Position numbers and translations under genes: made by a program. A stretch of 13,335 bases of DNA from UHGV virus genome UHGV-0874476; one strand, given 5' to 3'. The DNA is from a virus. The notes beneath the pieces are model-generated. The model was not told where the DNA came from. It saw nothing but the letters and a program-made list of their open reading frames with translations, and did not search any database. Shown here one piece after another: positions 324 through 9,520 of this stretch. The first letter of the stretch is position 1; each line of letters opens with the position of its first letter.

Positions 324-779
324 ATGGCAAGAGGAGATATGAGAATCGATACTCTGAAGGTTGGTGCAGAGGAAGAGATTCTTAATAGAAAAGAGTTCCA
401 AGCGGTAGCGAATACAGTAGATTTTACCGATGTTTCTGATCGTTATAGTCTTTCTCTGACTTTTTATTGTGCTCTGTTTTACGTCATTTCTCTTGACGTT
501 GCTCCGATTAACGTCTCTTCTCCAGACATATTTCTACTTCTAAACCTTATCTATGATTGGAGAATTGGATATCTGGTTTTGTGGGTCCGAAGATGTATTA
601 TTTGTTTCTGCACCAGTTTCCGCACTATTTTCATAGGCGTATTTCTGGTAGGCTTCAATTCCTTCCTTGCTATCGTTGTAAACCTGTTCAACATCGTCAA
701 ACGCATCGATATATCTGAGGGCATGTCTTCCATTGATTCCGTGAGACACAAGCGTTGCAAATGTATTTGCCTTGATTGA
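324..779 (+). CDS. hypothetical protein; last ~240 nt overlap the portal gene in antisense, so true 3' extent is uncertain
   Basis: ATG 324 preceded by taggagg at ~8 nt spacing; first ~45 aa look protein-like, remainder is Cys/Phe/Ile-rich as expected for antisense read-through. Confidence 0.3.
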   Translation: MARGDMRIDTLKVGAEEEILNRKEFQAVANTVDFTDVSDRYSLSLTFYCALFYVISLDVAPINVSSPDIFLLLNLIYDWRIGYLVLWVRRCIICFCTSFRTIFIGVFLVGFNSFLAIVVNLFNIVKRIDISEGMSSIDSVRHKRCKCICLD

Positions 780-2033
780 CATGTCCACCGATTTTTTTCT
801 AAGGAAACGAAACTCAATATCAGAAACATGAACTCTTCTTATTGGGCTGTCTGACGGAAGAACCCTTGATGGAATTGTTTTGATTGCCTTAAGTATAAGA
901 CTAATTTCCTTCCGCTTTCCCCTTTCCGTCATTTGCTGTTCTTGCAGAGCATCCAACTCCGCTGCGCTCCACCCGGAAGCCATGTCTGTTGCTGTTCCGG
1001 TGGATCCTCCACCAGAGCTCTCATACTGAATTGGAACATAGCAATCTTGGAGTATTGTAGCTCTCTGATTCTTTATGGCATCAAGAGTGCTGCTGCCATT
1101 GAAAGAACTTGACAATGGAGCGATCTTGGCAACCTTTCCGTCAGAGCTATACGTTAGAATCCAATCACCAGATTTGGGTTTTACAGGATTTCCTTTCTCA
1201 TCTTCTCTGAAATCAATGTTATCGCCCCACCAGAGCTCCTGCGTCCGTTGGCTAACATCATTTACGAAGTCAGATTCCAAAATATTCAGCGCATCAATTT
1301 CTTTGATTTTACGTTCAAAACATCCAGTCCTGTCAACCGACCGTTCATATTCTACGATCGGGATCTGACCTAAGATGTTCACCGTGTGGAATTTTATCTC
1401 TCCGGCTTCAATTTCAAAGCGTTCTGTATCCGTGAAACATGTGAAATAATTCTTTCCAGATCTTTTCACATACGATACTCCCATCATCTCACGCTGGCTA
1501 GGTCCATTGTGATACACTACAAAAGCGAATCTAGAGTCCAAAGTATAGATATTTACCAAAGATTCTGGAATTTCATTTACCGTTGCCGGAAATGTCTTTG
1601 GCTCAATCATTCTGTGTCCGATTCCACAAATTTCAAGGAATTCTGCCATTTGCTGATCTTTGAACGAAATATTTTCCCCGTTCTTAAGGATTTCATTCAA
1701 CCCAGAGATTCCAGAATCATCTATATCGGAATTGGTATTATGAATTTCTTTGTCTCCTCTTTGAACCAAAAGAATCGGACTTCCCCAGTTATATCCTTTT
1801 TTGAACTTCTTAATATAGTTCGGCAAACTTGAATTAACCCGAATATCTATATCGGCACGCACCGTCTTCTCCCTCTGTAGCGGCTGTTCTCCACGCTCAT
1901 AATCTATGAGGTATTGTATTTCCAATACATTCTGTCTATGCTTGGCATAGGCTTTTTGCAAAACTTCCACGATATTATTTTTATCTATGCTGTCAGCATC
2001 TGTATAAATCTTCTGCCTGCCAAGCAGACGCAT
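540..2033 (-). CDS. putative phage portal protein
   Basis: 497-aa ORF, ATG 2033 with GGTGGTGGG SD-like sequence; size and position downstream of terminase large subunit fit a portal; acidic C-terminus; family assignment from memory only. Confidence 0.7.
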   Translation of the reverse strand: MRLLGRQKIYTDADSIDKNNIVEVLQKAYAKHRQNVLEIQYLIDYERGEQPLQREKTVRADIDIRVNSSLPNYIKKFKKGYNWGSPILLVQRGDKEIHNTNSDIDDSGISGLNEILKNGENISFKDQQMAEFLEICGIGHRMIEPKTFPATVNEIPESLVNIYTLDSRFAFVVYHNGPSQREMMGVSYVKRSGKNYFTCFTDTERFEIEAGEIKFHTVNILGQIPIVEYERSVDRTGCFERKIKEIDALNILESDFVNDVSQRTQELWWGDNIDFREDEKGNPVKPKSGDWILTYSSDGKVAKIAPLSSSFNGSSTLDAIKNQRATILQDCYVPIQYESSGGGSTGTATDMASGWSAAELDALQEQQMTERGKRKEISLILKAIKTIPSRVLPSDSPIRRVHVSDIEFRFLRKKSVDMSIKANTFATLVSHGINGRHALRYIDAFDDVEQVYNDSKEGIEAYQKYAYENSAETGAETNNTSSDPQNQISNSPIIDKV

Positions 2034-2694: not shown

Positions 2695-4407
2695 CTAATA
2701 AGGGCTTCTTACAATTCGAGATTCTTTTCGTCCAAGTGTATCTTGTACACATTCAGCTAACATACTAAGCGAATCTATTCCGTCATCATGTAGCACTTTT
2801 GCCTTTGTTGTATAAGTACAAACATTCCCCATGAATAATCCGTAATCAGATTTTGGTGTATAAAGACTCGGATCTAAAAACAGACAATGTTTCTTAATCC
2901 AGTCTGCATTAACCAATATTTTTGTTTCCTTATTTGCCGTTGTATATTTCGTTTCAATGCTTGTCCGGCACTTTCCTTTAACCATCTTTTCAATGTTATC
3001 TGCGATTCGTCCTCCGGCTTGGTTCGACTCAAATCTTACTTTATGCGGATTATGCTCAATGATTATGTCTGCTGTTTTCCTGTCCAAAGTGTCGTAATCC
3101 GTGTTATCGTCAAATACTACTGCTGGAATATAGAAATCTTCGCCAAACTGATAAGCAATGGGTAATGACTCAAAGTCTGTTCCCTTATCTTTGGTATCAC
3201 ACACGCCCCATATAGCATCTGGTTCTCTATCCGGAAAAATAGTAAATTGCATTTGTTTCTCTGGTACTTGATCTTTTGAAAAGAAAAATCTTCTCAGCTC
3301 AGATGCAGGGAGAAGCAATCCTTCTCTTTCGATCGGTTGCTGCTGATATAAACAGTTGAAAGAAATATCATCCATGGACTCTTTAGCATCCATAAAATAT
3401 TTCTTAGAAAACCCATTTACAGTAAACATGAAGTTACTTTCTCCGTTTTCATCTAAAGCCGGAATTGCTATGAATTTAGCTTTTGGATTCCCTTCGTAAA
3501 GTTGTTGTAGCTTACCTATTGGATCATGTACCGACCACCTAGTCGCTATATAAATTTCTTTACACCCCTCTAATCGTCTGGAACGTAAATCATTGACAAC
3601 CTTTGTCCAAAGGGTTTCTAATCGGTTTTTGTTCAATGCCTCTTCGATACCAGATACAAGGTCATCGGCTGTAAGAAATCTATTACATCGGGTAGCACCT
3701 GTAAGGGAACCGTCTATAGAGCGGAATGTCCATGTCTTAAATCGTCCATTTCTTTCAAGATTTACAGTTGTTTCTTTCGCATTGGTATTGGTAAGCTGTA
3801 CTGTCGGGAAAATCTCATGCCATGTATATTCCACCGGATCGTTAATGATTTCAAGCACACCATCATAAAGGGAACGTGTCAAAATGCTACTATGTGCTGA
3901 TGAAAGGTTGAAATCGTTCGGAAACCATCCGCCCACAAGCGAAAGAAAGAAATCTTCAAGTGTGGATTTTCCACATCCGGGCGGAACGCTCAGCCCAAAT
4001 ATATCCAATTCATCATCCATTAAATCTTGCAGGCTCTGTATAATTTGATGTTTTACGAACACTTCCCGTCTTGGTTCATAAAATCTTTCTTTTGGAAGTC
4101 GATTCTTCTCTAAATAAAGTAGCCCGCTGTCTACCTGATAGTTTTGGGCTTCCAATAGTAAATACTTCCAGTACAAATCATCAAATTCTCCGCTGCCGGT
4201 CTGAGCCGCCATATAAGCAGCCATCTCATGTGCATACTTGCTGATTTTCATGGCGTAGTCCCGGACTTCCTTATTTTCAGAGAAGTCAAAATCTTCTCTC
4301 ATATTCAGAAGCAAATCCAGGCAATCCCTCTGGTTAACTTTGTTCTTCAATCCGTCATTTATAATTTGTTGGAATAGTCCTTTGTACCATTCCATAGTTC
4401 CTTCCAT
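2695..4407 (-). CDS. terL: phage terminase large subunit
   Basis: 570-aa ORF; Walker A-like PPGCGKST; C-terminal nuclease-like segment ending LHDDGIDSLSMLAE typical of terminase RNase H-like domains; AGGAGG SD upstream of ATG 4407. Confidence 0.88.
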   Translation of the reverse strand: MEGTMEWYKGLFQQIINDGLKNKVNQRDCLDLLLNMREDFDFSENKEVRDYAMKISKYAHEMAAYMAAQTGSGEFDDLYWKYLLLEAQNYQVDSGLLYLEKNRLPKERFYEPRREVFVKHQIIQSLQDLMDDELDIFGLSVPPGCGKSTLEDFFLSLVGGWFPNDFNLSSAHSSILTRSLYDGVLEIINDPVEYTWHEIFPTVQLTNTNAKETTVNLERNGRFKTWTFRSIDGSLTGATRCNRFLTADDLVSGIEEALNKNRLETLWTKVVNDLRSRRLEGCKEIYIATRWSVHDPIGKLQQLYEGNPKAKFIAIPALDENGESNFMFTVNGFSKKYFMDAKESMDDISFNCLYQQQPIEREGLLLPASELRRFFFSKDQVPEKQMQFTIFPDREPDAIWGVCDTKDKGTDFESLPIAYQFGEDFYIPAVVFDDNTDYDTLDRKTADIIIEHNPHKVRFESNQAGGRIADNIEKMVKGKCRTSIETKYTTANKETKILVNADWIKKHCLFLDPSLYTPKSDYGLFMGNVCTYTTKAKVLHDDGIDSLSMLAECVQDTLGRKESRIVRSPY

Positions 4408-4446: not shown

Positions 4447-4468
4447 CGGCTCTTGATTTCGGCTCTTG
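4447..4468. repeat. tandem 9-bp direct repeat cggctcttg x2 (4-bp spacer) inside a weak inverted repeat, ~40 bp upstream of terL
   Basis: exact copies at 4447-4455 and 4460-4468 in the 67-bp lipoprotein-terL intergenic region. Confidence 0.5.
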
Positions 4469-4474
4469 CGACTT

Positions 4475-4837
4475 TTATCGTATTCTGATAATTTTTCTTT
4501 CTATTATTTCTCCATTTTTATATGTGTTTCGAATTTCTACAGAAATATTATCTCCTATTTTTGAGTTGTAAAATATTGGTGCACCAAATGCTCCTTTTGA
4601 CCATGAATTTTCTTCATAATGCAAATCATACGGCTCATAATAAACTTCGATATGCCACTCATACCTATGAGTAATAGCAAACCAGTGTCGCATATCCAAT
4701 TCTTGTATTTCTGCACTCACAATTTCATATTCGTATGTTAATTGTTGGTTGTTCTCAGAAACTTCTATTTCTCTTCCAGAACATCCAGTTAGGATCAATG
4801 TTAAAAATATACACAACATGATTTTCAAAAACTTCAT
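4475..4837 (-). CDS. small lipoprotein (120 aa)
   Basis: ATG 4837 preceded by GGGAGAAAA SD; N-terminus MKFLKIMLCIFLTLILTGCSG has hydrophobic signal plus lipobox L-T-G-C; the ORF-track start at 4945 lacks an RBS. Confidence 0.6.
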   Translation of the reverse strand: MKFLKIMLCIFLTLILTGCSGREIEVSENNQQLTYEYEIVSAEIQELDMRHWFAITHRYEWHIEVYYEPYDLHYEENSWSKGAFGAPIFYNSKIGDNISVEIRNTYKNGEIIERKIIRIR

Positions 4838-6854: not shown

Positions 6855-7079
6855 TTACTCCTCCCAATTCTTCAAAAACTCCTGTACGTATTCATAGTTC
6901 CAACCACCGGAACCATTGATGTCCGTATCATCTTTCAAAAGATTCCATGCCTCTTCTTTGGTTTCAGCATATCCGATAAGATAATCGGAATCTCCGCACT
7001 CTTCACAATAAGTCTGCTCGTAATCTAATATTTCATCAGATACAAACAGACCGCCCATGTGTGATTGATATATGTACAT
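6855..7079 (-). CDS. hypothetical acidic small protein (74 aa, CEECGD motif)
   Basis: ATG 7079 overlaps upstream stop (TAATG coupling). Confidence 0.55.
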   Translation of the reverse strand: MYIYQSHMGGLFVSDEILDYEQTYCEECGDSDYLIGYAETKEEAWNLLKDDTDINGSGGWNYEYVQEFLKNWEE

Positions 7080-7372
7080 TACTGTCCCACCCCAAAATGT
7101 TTCCGCAGCATTGCCAATTCATCGACTGCTTTCAGAAATGCTGTCCGCATATCGGTATACCGAATACAATCCTGCTGGTGCTGGTCTTGAAGGTCTTTGC
7201 AAATTCTTTCCAACTCTGCAATTCTGTACTTTTCTTCTTTTTCCACTTTCTTAATTTCAACAGATTCATAAACATCTTCTAGTTTTGATCTAAGAACTGC
7301 GTTTTCGTCAATAAGGTTTCTGATTTGTTCAATCATTTCCTGCTTTGTCATTTCTCTTACACAATCGCACAT
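7079..7372 (-). CDS. hypothetical coiled-coil protein (97 aa)
   Basis: ATG 7372 preceded by GAGG at 9 nt; heptad-like charged/hydrophobic pattern; first gene after the tRNA island. Confidence 0.6.
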   Translation of the reverse strand: MCDCVREMTKQEMIEQIRNLIDENAVLRSKLEDVYESVEIKKVEKEEKYRIAELERICKDLQDQHQQDCIRYTDMRTAFLKAVDELAMLRKHFGVGQ

Positions 7373-7400
7373 ATTTTTTACCTCACAAAATTATTTGAAA

Positions 7401-7426
7401 TGCGCGGGTGTGGATTTGCACCACAC
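7401..7426 (-). other. tRNA 3'-half-like remnant (T-arm-like hairpin GUGUGG-UGCAAAU-CCACAC plus CCCGCGCA tail); no matching 5' acceptor strand found
   Basis: plus-strand gtgtggatttgcaccacac; no complementary acceptor within 100 nt upstream on minus strand. Confidence 0.3.
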
Positions 7427-7557
7427 ATGATTTTCATTCCTACAAGTGTCCTCCGAATTATACATTCCCGACCACTATAAAATCTTATGTTTAAGCGTTT
7501 ACCTGTTCCGCCACCGCACATCACGCATTGATTACCGGCTCAATACGCAAAGCCTAA

Positions 7558-7671
7558 TTGCGACAGGTGGATTTGAACCACCGCTTATACCAACGCCAGA
7601 CCTTCCCAGATTTCAATGGTAGCTAGTCATATACTTTCTGTTGGGTGTGAGGATTTGAACCTCTGTCGCAA
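7558..7671 (-). other. composite tRNA-like structured element: 9-bp terminal inverted repeat enclosing two T-arm-like hairpins with identical UUCAAAU loops
   Basis: minus strand UUGCGACAG...CUGUCGCAA (perfect 9-bp complement); hairpins GAGG-UUCAAAU-CCUC and GGUGG-UUCAAAU-CCACC; neither hairpin has a canonical tRNA body around it. Confidence 0.35.
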
Positions 7672-7722
7672 ACCACGAAAGCTTTCTTCACAACAACAAC
7701 CGGATAAAATCATTGCTGTGCA

Positions 7723-7799
7723 TTGCCCTGAGTGGATTCGAACCACCGACAGCACGCCAGTTCATGTGTACGCTGCTCTACCAACTGAGCTACAGGGCA
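7723..7799 (-). tRNA. tRNA-like gene with canonical acceptor, D-arm and T-arm but non-canonical anticodon arm; identity undetermined, possibly pseudo-tRNA
   Basis: minus strand UGCCCUG-UA-GCUC-AGUUGGUA-GAGC ... GGUGG-UUCGAAU-CCACU-CAGGGCA-A; the 26 nt between D-arm and T-arm cannot form a 5-bp stem with 7-nt loop. Confidence 0.45.
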
Positions 7800-7912
7800 A
7801 ACCTTTTGATTTCGTAAACCGCCTATAATCCTCGGAAATCGTCAGAACTCCATGACGTTCCTTACCTCCAAACTAGGTTTTTAAAGCGCTTTATGGCTTT
7901 TACTTCCGCTTT

Positions 7913-7970
7913 GACATATGGATTGCTCGTCAGCAAATTACGCTCCGGATACCAGAGATCACCATATGTC
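7913..7970 (-). other. 58-nt three-way-junction structured element immediately 3' of tRNA-Thr
   Basis: minus strand GACAUAUGG...CCAUAUGUC (9-bp closing stem) enclosing hairpins CUCUGG-UAU-CCGGAG (one G-U) and UUGCU-GACG-AGCAA. Confidence 0.35.
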
Positions 7971-7972
7971 AG

Positions 7973-8044
7973 AGCCAGAAACCGGACTCGAACCGACAAT
8001 ATCAGCATTACAAGTACTGCGTTCTACCATTGAACTATTCTGGC
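7973..8044 (-). tRNA. tRNA-Thr (anticodon UGU)
   Basis: hand-folded cloverleaf: acceptor GCCAGAA/UUCUGGC, U8 A9, D-stem GUUC/GAAC, anticodon stem CAGUA/UGCUG, loop CUUGUAA, T-arm GUCGG-UUCGAGU-CCGGU, 72 nt. Confidence 0.88.
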
Positions 8045-8296
8045 TACTTAATAAACACCAGTAAACGCTATGCGAAAACCGGATTCCTTTTCTGAACCTG
8101 TCAGATAGGTAAAATATTCCCTTATAAAACCACTTGTCCAACTTATTTACCATACAGGTGTGGCACTAATAATTTACTTCCAGGAATCTTCCAGAATTAC
8201 CGACTACTGCTAATCACGGTCTATGGTCTTATCTCTCTGGAGAAGTTTTTTGCAAGGTTCTTCAGCAGGTATAAGTTGCCTTGCTATATGGAAAAG

Positions 8297-8369
8297 TACA
8301 GGGAGTAGGAGTCGAACCCACAATCGCTGGATATAAGCCAGGTGCAACGTACCGCATCACCTTCCCTGC
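8297..8369 (-). tRNA. probable tRNA, anticodon tentatively UAU (Ile, decoding AUA); atypical A8, weak D-stem, G1-U72
   Basis: acceptor GCAGGGA/UCCCUGU, anticodon stem CUGG/CCAG with loop CUUAUAU, T-arm GUGGG-UUCGACU-CCUAC, 73 nt. Confidence 0.5.
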
Positions 8370-8533
8370 AAAACGGCATTTCTGCCGTTAGCAACATGTT
8401 TTTCGTGCTATGCCTAAGCGCTAGGAAATATTTTCTATTTCCAAAACCTCCCGGCACTTGTGACGCACCTTTAATCAGCTCTCCGCTAGGAGGTTCTAGT
8501 ATAAAGGAGGTCTATCAAAAAAATGATAACAAA

Positions 8534-8605
8534 CGGGGATTGTAGGATTCGAACCTACGTATGCAAGAGTCAAAATCTTGTGTGTTTCCTCTTCACCAAA
8601 TCCCT
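8534..8605 (-). tRNA. tRNA-Gln (anticodon UUG)
   Basis: hand-folded cloverleaf: acceptor AGGGAUU/AAUCCCC (A1-C72 mismatch), 3-bp D-stem, anticodon stem CAAGA/UCUUG, loop UUUUGAC, T-arm GUAGG-UUCGAAU-CCUAC, discriminator G, 72 nt. Confidence 0.88.
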
Positions 8606-9098
8606 ATACTACGTTGCGATAAAAAGTACGATTCATAATATTTATAATTGTTGTTTTTGAAACCCCATAAACTTCCGCGATTCTCCTAGTTGATGTTTTC
8701 CCTTTTTGTTCTCTTATAAAACGAACATCTTTTTCCGTAAGTTTTCTGTTATTATATAATTCATTTTTTTTGCTTTCTTCAATCAAATGATATTTTGTAT
8801 TTTCCTTTGGTGTTACCCACTCTAAATTATCAACATAAGGATTTTTCTTATTTTCGTCTTTATGATGCACTATTTTCTTATTGTCATGATTCGGAATAAA
8901 CGTTTCAGCAACCGCCTTGTGAACTCTAATTCCTTTCACTGCTCCTCTTTTTCCAAGCGGTATATACACCATTAAGTAACCAGCCTTATTAACATTAAAT
9001 TTGTATATACGATTTGTCTTTAAATTTTTAATATTTCCATTTGTATCAATAACAAAATCCGCATATTCAATTCCCCCATATACCATAGTTTTAAACAT
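8604..9098 (-). CDS. HNH homing endonuclease-like protein (N-terminal NUMOD4-like segment, HNH_3-like core, C-terminal helix-turn-helix)
   Basis: motifs GIEYADFVIDTNGNIKNL and HHKDENKKNPYVDNLEWVTPKENTKYH; ATG 9098 preceded by AAAGGAG; stop codon overlaps first nucleotides of tRNA-Gln; ORF-track start 9173 is TTG without RBS. Confidence 0.75.
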   Translation of the reverse strand: MFKTMVYGGIEYADFVIDTNGNIKNLKTNRIYKFNVNKAGYLMVYIPLGKRGAVKGIRVHKAVAETFIPNHDNKKIVHHKDENKKNPYVDNLEWVTPKENTKYHLIEESKKNELYNNRKLTEKDVRFIREQKGKTSTRRIAEVYGVSKTTIINIMNRTFYRNVV

Positions 9099-9213
9099 AA
9101 TGCCACATTCTCCTTTACTGCGGATATTCCCAGTTTTATTCTCCGAATACCCCATTGTGCTTTTTCTTTGCAACCATTCTCTTCTGAACTCATAGCCTGA
9201 CAGGGCAAAATTT

Positions 9214-9378
9214 CTAATACCACATGCAAAACATATTCATCACAAAAAGTACATGGAGTATCCAGAAACCAAGCATTGATTCTTTTCCATTTCTGTGATA
9301 GGTCTCCCACATATAATAAATAAAAATTGCCATCATAATGACGTCGAAAGTAGTTGTCACGATTTTTAATGCATACAT
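9214..9378 (-). CDS. possible 54-aa membrane mini-protein (two hydrophobic segments)
   Basis: ATG 9378 preceded by GGAG ~11 nt upstream; sequence MYALKIVTTTFDVIMMAIFIYYMWETYHRNGKESMLGFWILHVLFVMNMFCMWY. Confidence 0.4.
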   Translation of the reverse strand: MYALKIVTTTFDVIMMAIFIYYMWETYHRNGKESMLGFWILHVLFVMNMFCMWY

Positions 9379-9382
9379 CTTA

Positions 9383-9520
9383 TTATTCAGCTCCTTTTTT
9401 ATAGCACTTAATTCCAAAATCAATAATTTTAACAATCGCCAAGAATCCAACTAACGCAAAATATAATGTAGGTGCTTCGATTATCTTTCCAATCCACCAT
9501 AATAATGCTAATATAATCAT
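9383..9520 (-). CDS. possible 45-aa single-pass membrane mini-protein
   Basis: ATG 9520 directly follows stop of upstream gene (TAAATG); MIILALLWWIGKIIEAPTLYFALVGFLAIVKIIDFGIKCYKKGAE; below ORF-track cutoff, hand-translated. Confidence 0.35.
   Translation of the reverse strand: MIILALLWWIGKIIEAPTLYFALVGFLAIVKIIDFGIKCYKKGAE

Follow-up and report, generated by a model that had tools for sequence, protein, structure and literature searches.

The 13,335-nucleotide (nt) stretch analyzed here, the window, belongs to the virus genome UHGV-0874476 and carries an array of transfer RNA (tRNA) genes on its minus strand. We propose, with a probability of about 0.7 for the explanation as a whole, that the element at 8297–8369 (minus strand) is a functional elongator tRNA with anticodon UAU, tRNA-Ile(UAU), that would fill the AUA-decoding slot of its phage family, and that the leader hairpin directly upstream would act as a processing boundary in the precursor RNA.

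The tRNA-Ile(UAU) gene and its family

A sequence-only reading had folded the element by hand and taken CUUAUAU as its anticodon loop. This assignment was borne out: ARAGORN calls tRNA-Ile with anticodon 'tat', the Rfam tRNA model RF00005 matches 8297–8369 on the minus strand with 33.3 bits (gathering score 29; E = 8e-4 over the whole window), and CUUAUAU falls in the anticodon loop of the Rfam alignment. The element forms a cloverleaf with stems of 7, 4, 5 and 5 base pairs (bp), a 7-nt anticodon loop that includes U33, and a T loop. The oddities listed earlier, namely G1⋅U72, A8 and a weak D stem, were all recovered when the minus strand was read; the D stem, GUGA/UUGC, consists of G-C, U⋅G, G⋅U and A-U, hence two wobble pairs. 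Further features are a C27×C43 mismatch, the T loop sequence UUCGACU, discriminator A73 and the absence of an encoded CCA.

Relatives of the tRNA were collected with an exact 35-mer covering the anticodon and T region and with a 22-mer. The 35-mer had exact matches in eight other viral contigs and the 22-mer matched in five Clostridium, Clostridiales and Bacilli genome bins, and every one of these sites is called tRNA-Ile(UAU) by ARAGORN. All 14 family copies are 73 nt long, G1⋅U72, A8, G9, U14 and A73 are invariant among them, and their acceptor and T stems vary by compensatory substitution. When ten family members were scored for covariation, 95% of the cloverleaf cells were paired and seven pairs had changes on both sides; none of 500 shuffles reached this score, and slid controls paired at 40–50%. 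The acceptor, D and T helices are 100% paired across the family. Because the odd features are invariant in 14 copies while the stems covary, they are family traits rather than signs of decay. A8 and U14 together resemble an exchange of the two partners in the canonical tertiary pair U8-A14 and could keep the interaction.

The isolate Clostridiales bacterium VE202-15 carries a family copy on a 323-kb contig, together with a tRNA-Leu, downstream of a GGDEF/two-component operon and adjoining a Rep_trans element. The family was probably chromosomal in bacteria at first and acquired by phages later. No family member was found in deposited phages by blastn; the search gave just a partial match in MT835477.1, which on inspection proved to be a different UAU tRNA body, the fourth of those listed below.

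UAU and CAU tRNAs alternate in one slot

A terminase search identified 214 viral contigs as related; 80 of them were retrieved for comparison, and the tRNA-Gln(UUG) gene that precedes tRNA-Ile in the window served as the anchor; it was found in 63 related loci. In nearly all of these relatives, the next tRNA lies 176–247 nt after tRNA-Gln(UUG); its ARAGORN call is Met(CAT) and it reads GGAAAC..GGCUCAUAACC. A TAT tRNA occupies this slot only in the window, in L001 and L002 (both with terminases 97% identical to that of the window), and in L095 and L096, and the CAT tRNA is absent from all five; in the other 58 loci with the Gln anchor, TAT is missing and the CAT tRNA is of the GGA type. A sixth TAT case is MT835477.1 (L098), with a terminase 74% identical. 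UAU and CAU tRNAs are therefore mutually exclusive in the phage family (5 (+1) loci vs. 58), and four different UAU bodies fill a single leader/trailer frame:

Window type, in the window: pair 1-72 is G1⋅U72
GCAAGAG.., in L001, L002 and L095: pair 1-72 is G1-C72
GGAAACU..GGCCUUAUAAGCC, in L096 (6025–6100): pair 1-72 is G1⋅U72
GGAAGUG.., in MT835477.1/L098 (1259–1332): pair 1-72 is G1⋅U72

The L096 tRNA shares 75–80% identity with the CAU tRNAs that fill the slot in relatives and differs from them in the wobble base; it has G1⋅U72 where these CAU orthologues have G1-C72. With G1⋅U72 present in three of the four unrelated bodies, this pair may be an identity feature coupled to U34 of tRNA-Ile(UAU). 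A C-to-T wobble change in a tRNA-Ile(CAT) gene is the proposed origin of tRNA-Ile(UAU) genes, and tRNA-Ile(UAU) is an established, though uncommon, AUA decoder (PMC3575796).

The relatives' slot tRNA(CAU) is most likely tRNA-Ile2, which would need the host TilS enzyme for lysidine formation. We infer that the slot tRNA is an AUA decoder in all lineages, because a Met tRNA mutated to UAU would lose its identity and an Ile2 tRNA mutated to UAU would keep it. Functional substitution for tRNA-Ile2(CAU) is indicated indirectly by the shared slot, the mutual exclusivity and the existence of a CAU tRNA orthologue with anticodon UAU. The UAU tRNA of the window lineage, which has the purine A37 and discriminator A73, would decode AUA without lysidine modification.

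Codon usage agrees with this assignment, as do the comparative data on exclusivity and L096 orthology, so that the AUA-decoder role suggested by the sequence-only reading fits. ATA makes up 71 of 272 Ile codons in the window (26%, or 20 per 1000 codons), and other A-ending codons are favored as well (ACA, 53% of Thr; CAA, 45% of Gln), with matching tRNAs in the array. For comparison, ATA makes up 14% of Ile codons in three chromosomal genes beside the VE202-15 copy, a small sample from a candidate host-like chromosome.

A stem-loop abuts the tRNA 5′ end

The tRNA and the elements that frame it are as follows, in the order of transcription:

8534–8605, minus strand: tRNA-Gln(UUG), called by ARAGORN (8533–8606) and by Rfam with 59.6 bits; upstream anchor of the spacer
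8512–8529, minus strand: hairpin H1, UUAUCA-UUUUUU-UGAUAG, from folding; directly after tRNA-Gln
8446–8495, minus strand: tRNA-like element of ~50 nt without anticodon arm, from alignment, covariation and a covariance model (60 bits)
8424–8442, minus strand: spacer hairpin GGAAAUA-GAAAA-UAUUUCC, from folding; conserved in L001
8390–8414, minus strand: leader GGCAUAGCACGAAAAACAUGUUGCU(AA), single-copy, the 5′ part of 'module B', from alignment and 34 distinct instances
8370–8389, minus strand: terminal leader hairpin, AACGGCA (8389–8383), GAAA (8382–8379) and UGCCGUU (8378–8372) followed by UU (8371–8370), from sequence and folding
8297–8369, minus strand: tRNA-Ile(UAU), 73 nt, from ARAGORN (8296–8369), Rfam (33.3 bits) and family covariation
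8245–8296, minus strand: conserved trailer, CUUUUCCAUAUA, hairpin GCAAGG...CCUUGC (8284–8252) and A-run, from alignment with L001, L002, L096 and CAT-type relatives

The 7-bp hairpin with GAAA loop and U-run that had been noticed by eye is present, but its stem ends 2 nt before the tRNA, not 1 nt, and the UU of its U-run directly abuts G1 at 8369. The hairpin, with four G-C pairs among its seven, folds alone with −9.5 kcal/mol; with its flanks the value is −13.7 kcal/mol (z = −4.3), and none of 200 shuffles was as stable.

Together with the leader the hairpin forms module B, GCAUARCACGAWAAAC..UUGCUAA followed by a 6–8-bp stem-loop, 1–3 nt and a tRNA, a pattern that the window matches at 8414–8370. 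We found 34 distinct genuine instances in the relatives, each followed by a hairpin and then by a tRNA or a tRNA-like 5′ end. There, module B precedes the second-slot tRNA, which is Tyr, initiator-like Met, Arg(CCU) or an uncalled tRNA-like sequence. The hairpin is not specific to tRNA-Ile, since module B stands before five tRNA types. The GAAA hairpin is identical in L001, L002, L095 and L096, and these and the window are the only loci with GAAA; the homologues have AUCG, UGAGU, GGCUU, GAAU, ACAC and similar loops, so a GNRA loop is not conserved. The stem is: 6–8 bp were paired in 19 of 19 distinct versions with seven different 5′ arms (AACGGCA, AACCGGC, AACCCGG, AACCGG and others), when hairpins were folded sequence by sequence (the MAFFT alignment had put them in two registers). 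Their tails vary (UU, UC, UA, AA and C).

The leader of the relatives' slot-1 tRNA differs from module B, yet 48 of 52 distinct spacers have a stem of at least 7 bp whose last base lies exactly 2 nt from the tRNA. These stems comprise at least eight sequences with covarying basal positions (AGCAG/CUGCU, AGUAG/CUACU, AGUGG/CCACU and AGCAA/UUGCU) and are followed by CA or UA. When stems of at least 7 bp ending 0–4 nt before the gene were counted, the result was:

Slot tRNAs: 27 of 30
Gln tRNAs: 26 of 36
Other array tRNAs: 43 of 89
Random positions: 20%

In the sequences compared, a predicted stem-loop 1–3 nt before the mature 5′ end is thus a regular feature of tRNA genes in this phage family.

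L081–L093, contigs with the same tRNA but without this phage backbone, have no GAAA hairpin; the hairpin belongs to the frame and not to the tRNA. Unrelated phages with the same tRNA-Ile(UAU) have unrelated hairpins 5–9 nt upstream. In L081–L087, the sequence directly upstream of the tRNA is a hairpin resembling a terminator (GGCAUCUGGC...GUCAGGUGUC or GGCACCC...GGGUGUC, which differ in a compensatory way) followed by UUUCUUUA; three of these contigs also have a tRNA-Arg(CCU) 10 nt downstream of tRNA-Ile.

A candidate processing boundary

The best reading of the hairpin is a structural role in the precursor RNA. Most likely, the array would be transcribed as a polycistronic precursor and dissected by RNase P and a 3′ endonuclease; CCA would be added after processing, because it is not encoded. 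The hairpin would then serve as an insulator or mark a processing boundary. With its stem ending at −3, it would keep the acceptor strand of the tRNA apart from the structured spacer and so protect tRNA folding. RNase P cleavage at −1/+1 would leave the hairpin as the 3′-terminal stem-loop of the released spacer RNA, shielding it from 3′ exonucleases. A processing signal had been offered as the second option in the sequence-only reading; it is the better account of the hairpin, by indirect reasoning. The efficiency of RNase P can depend on how the leader is structured (PMC8925977), and a timing or attenuating role would be equally possible. Nothing specific was found in the literature on a described phage tRNA-cluster spacer RNA or leader hairpin.

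The tRNA is exchanged inside a conserved frame

The L001 and L002 sequences align with the window from the 3′ end of tRNA-Gln through the spacer and hairpin to 8371; the alignment is lost across tRNA-Ile and regained in the trailer. In L096 the order is the same hairpin, UC, its own UAU tRNA and the same trailer. In L001, L002 and L095 the hairpin is followed by a ~100-nt uncalled tRNA-like element and then the UAU tRNA. The window trailer (UUUUCCAUAUAGC, hairpin and A-run) is homologous to that after the relatives' slot-1 CAU tRNA. A shared leader, hairpin and trailer around differing tRNAs indicate that the tRNA was exchanged as a cassette inside a fixed frame. As placed by the alignments, the left cassette junction is the hairpin end and the right one the tRNA 3′ end. 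In the window lineage, an imported Clostridiales-type UAU tRNA would have been swapped in between the conserved leader and trailer. The case is essentially one of ordinary, well-documented phage tRNA cassette swapping.

The ~100-nt element (L001 2151–2249; also L002 and L095) resembles a class-II tRNA, GAGAGUG...GGUUCGAAUCC...CACUCUCA, and begins 3 nt after the GAAA hairpin, so that here too the hairpin abuts a tRNA-like 5′ end. A trailer of UUUCUUCCAUAUGC-like sequence, hairpin with varying stem and A-run trails the AUA-decoder tRNA in all lineages.

Alternative explanations

The sequence-only reading had considered the hairpin as a possible terminator of the tRNA-Gln transcript. As a weak intrinsic terminator or attenuator of the Gln/spacer transcript, with tRNA-Ile made by read-through, it would have the required stable, GC-rich stem (7 bp, −9.5 kcal/mol), then UUUU in the window and 2–4 U after the module B homologues. 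The terminator scan, however, made no call: a U-tract of at least 5 U in 8 does not follow the stem, which continues with UUUUGCAG in the window and with 2–4 U or CA/UA in homologues, and neither promoters nor terminators were more numerous than in shuffled sequence. The U-run differs between homologues (UUUAAG in L001, UUUC in L096, and UUC, UUA or UUAA in others), and CA or UA, with no U-run, follows the stems that take this position before slot-1 tRNAs. The scan also found no promoter-like site between tRNA-Gln and tRNA-Ile, and there is neither room nor signal for a promoter between hairpin and tRNA, so efficient termination would silence a conserved tRNA. With the scan negative and no promoter between the two tRNAs, the terminator claim is poorly supported and we consider this role unlikely. 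A sigma-70 promoter in module B, with TTGCTA as −35, was also tried and rejected, since no conserved −10 stands at the right spacing in homologues. About equally improbable is a role of leader and hairpin as DNA only, that is, as homology arms or hotspots for tRNA cassette recombination with no RNA function. It would account for the break of homology with L001 and L002 exactly at the hairpin end and for one module standing before five tRNA types and four UAU bodies. It does not explain the compensatory stem substitutions with pairing kept in 19 of 19 versions, which point to selection on structure and not on sequence identity, nor the unrelated stems at the same −2 position before slot-1 tRNAs and the unrelated hairpins upstream of the same tRNA in other phages.

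For the tRNA itself, a counter-defence role is slightly less probable than either of these. The tRNA would be kept mainly as a decoy or replacement that neither a host anticodon nuclease nor the loss of TilS-dependent modification would affect, and less for codon supply. Some phage tRNAs are known to escape anticodon nucleases, CAU was replaced repeatedly and independently by UAU bodies, and several tRNA-like elements of non-canonical form are present in the array. Beside the array, however, no gene for defence or anti-defence was identified, and the array tRNAs fit A-ending codons (ACA, CAA and ATA), as codon supply predicts. That the element is a decaying pseudogene is very improbable. Its Rfam score lies only 4 bits above the gathering threshold, and A8, G1⋅U72, the weak D stem and the C27×C43 mismatch might suggest decay, but U14 provides a match for A8, none of the odd features varies in 14 members from different phages and bacteria, and the acceptor, D and T helices are fully paired; the pseudogene reading was rejected on this covariation evidence. 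Neither a pseudogene nor a different anticodon, the two outcomes that would have overturned the earlier call, was found.

Some observations weigh against the preferred reading, a functional tRNA-Ile(UAU) behind a processing boundary. The window contains three perfect 7-bp hairpins, against 2.1 ± 1.9 expected, so the hairpin alone is unexceptional; the significance of the predicted element lies only in its position and in its conservation and covariation in relatives. The UUUU after the stem in the window lineage may allow some termination. The bacterial RNase P protein contacts the single-stranded leader at about −4 to −7, hence a stem from −3 might hinder cleavage. In the tRNA family, positions 26–47 are invariant by construction, because the search patterns required them. 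Charging with isoleucine is predicted, the Ile identity being argued from the anticodon, A37, A73 and the logic of the slot. The identity elements of E. coli isoleucyl-tRNA synthetase (IleRS) include U12-A23, C29-G41 and A38, all of which are absent from the window tRNA. At the IleRS position of E. coli W905, species that use UAU have Arg. An E. coli-type IleRS charges UAU ~360-fold worse than the lysidine-containing LAU anticodon (PMC3575796), so the function of the tRNA would depend on the host IleRS. The nearest deposited relatives of the slot CAU tRNA are annotated mostly as Met, and as Ile in cyanophages; depositor annotations, tried as a means of assigning this tRNA to Ile2 or Met, were split and not decisive.

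The spacer contains a conserved tRNA-like core

Between tRNA-Gln and the leader, the spacer holds a tRNA-like core that consists of a 7-bp acceptor-like P1, a small P2 hairpin, a GAUUAAA joiner (AAA invariant) and a T-arm-like P3. P3 has a 5-bp stem and a 7-nt loop, UUCAAAU in most lineages and GUCACAA in the window, and its 3′ strand continues directly into the acceptor-like 3′ strand, as in the T arm of a tRNA. In 23 distinct sequences, 95.4% of the cells were paired and 58 cells had changed on both sides; none of 500 shuffles reached the score, and slid controls gave 34–49%. With the covariance model, each genome had a single copy, invariably behind tRNA-Gln, and unrelated contigs had none. 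Rfam 15 gave no match for the core (window at gathering score and E ≤ 10; two relatives at E ≤ 5); these scans returned only tRNAs and noise, e.g., plastid untranslated-region models on the tRNA antisense strand.

Tentatively, and with distinctly less confidence than in the main proposal, the 163 nt at 8370–8532 may be the gene for a processed, stable noncoding RNA of a large phage family of gut Firmicutes, with the hairpin as its 3′ end. The 5′ end of such an RNA would be set by 3′ processing of tRNA-Gln and the 3′ end by RNase P at the next tRNA, and its core could act on the host machinery for tRNA processing or modification or on defences that target tRNAs.

That the CUGAUUAAAGG core might be a small ribozyme, such as a hammerhead, was considered and rejected, since the motifs do not fit and Rfam gave no hit. 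The core was also observed in L001–L004, L014–L080, L095 and L096. Other lineages carry other stems at the position of H1. Most relatives' spacers (e.g., L026 ~4460–4500) have a hairpin, GUUGCGA...UCGCAAC, that the window lineage lacks. Its stem covaries, and its loop (GAGGGCAAG or GGUGGCAAAG) could pair with an upstream CCCUUUG or CCUUUG, to which it is complementary, in a possible pseudoknot.

Comparison with known systems

The tRNA resembles the tRNA-Ile(UAU) of Mycoplasma mobile (tRNA-Ile2), Lactobacillus casei and L. plantarum in having a UAU anticodon and A37 and in replacing the lysidine-dependent CAU tRNA. In L. casei and L. plantarum, UAU and CAU form a redundant pair (PMC3575796). 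The C-to-T wobble route proposed for these bacterial tRNAs is visible here in L096 when compared with its CAU orthologues. Unlike them, the window tRNA is phage-borne and has a body with G1⋅U72 and A8/U14, and it is an imported Clostridiales-type gene rather than a mutated CAU tRNA. For the AUA-reading isoleucine tRNAs of Latilactobacillus curvatus prophages, the counts are 7 of 10 for CAU and 1 for UAU (PMC10688831). There, as here, a phage provides an AUA decoder (in the window, AUA is 26% of Ile codons vs. 14% in the candidate host-like chromosome, a small sample). The difference is that here a whole family alternates CAU and UAU in one syntenic slot, with four UAU bodies.

The polycistronic E. 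coli tRNA transcripts valV-valW and leuQPV are separated by RNase P (PMC7049720). The window array is alike in that its tRNAs share a strand and no promoter was detected inside it, so that cuts by RNase P at each 5′ end would dissect the transcript. In contrast to the short spacers of the E. coli operons, spacers here are conserved, measure 160–250 nt and fold extensively, and a stem lies 2 nt from the predicted cleavage site. For MALAT1/mascRNA, the upstream RNA obtains its 3′ end by RNase P cleavage and is stabilized by a terminal structure (PMC8457004). The stable RNAs of the phage T4 tRNA cluster, species 1 and 2, follow a similar logic. Both cases resemble the proposed fate of the spacer RNA in logic and have no sequence or structural homology to the spacer. 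What is less ordinary here is the repeated CAU-to-UAU change in one slot, the recurrence of G1⋅U72, the 2-nt stem rule and the tRNA-like spacer RNA.

A tRNA-Ile(UAU) is uncommon and of interest because it reads AUA while bypassing TilS, an otherwise essential enzyme. Four UAU tRNAs replacing CAU in one slot provide a natural experiment on the change of AUA decoding and a probe of phage dependence on host tRNA-modification enzymes, and G1⋅U72, which recurs in three of the four, offers a concrete candidate for an identity feature. For the hairpin, the comparison sets right the tempting interpretation as a terminator, and points to a rule for the phage family, a stem 1–3 nt before the RNase P site in long, covarying, unannotated spacer RNAs. 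These data extend the known themes of phage tRNA arrays, codon supply and cassette exchange and do not overturn current understanding.

Genome context

The window is a fragment of a tailed phage with ~38% G+C and all genes on the minus strand. Its nearest cultured phage by terminase is Clostridium phage Maintenon (44% identity), and no close cultured relative was found: megablast of 7000–9500 against deposited phages gave only a 50-nt match. Besides two HNH endonucleases, it encodes the following:

540–2033, minus strand: SPP1-type portal protein
2695–4407, minus strand: large terminase
7722–7800, minus strand: aberrant tRNA, from ARAGORN and Rfam (48.5 bits)
7972–8044, minus strand: tRNA-Thr(UGU), from ARAGORN and Rfam

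With tRNA-Ile and tRNA-Gln these make the array of four tRNAs called by ARAGORN, and the Rfam tRNA model matches the same four. The tRNA at 7722–7800 has normal acceptor, D and T arms and an aberrant 22-nt anticodon region, for which ARAGORN gives the 4-base anticodon 'gaac'; the L001 copy is 92% identical, and the L002 copy has a 9-nt deletion in the anticodon arm. Two more uncalled tRNA-like elements, both absent from L001 and L002, lie at 7558–7671 and 7395–7530 (minus strand). Their acceptor-like closing stems are GCGACAG/CUGUCGC and GUGCGG../..CCGCGC, respectively. The middle part of each is long and non-canonical, and T-arm-like hairpins are present in both (GGUUCAAAUCC twice; GGUGCAAAUCC).

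The tRNA-Gln(UUG) has a non-Watson–Crick pair 1-72, A1×C72, in the Rfam alignment, and among the window, L001 and L002 it is more divergent than the spacer 3′ of it. An HNH endonuclease open reading frame with a helix-turn-helix tail (8604–9173, minus strand) ends in a stop codon that overlaps the first bases of tRNA-Gln. About 510 nt of this region (8609–9120) are missing in L001 and L002, and the reading frame has the appearance of a free-standing homing endonuclease gene that entered where the tRNA array begins.

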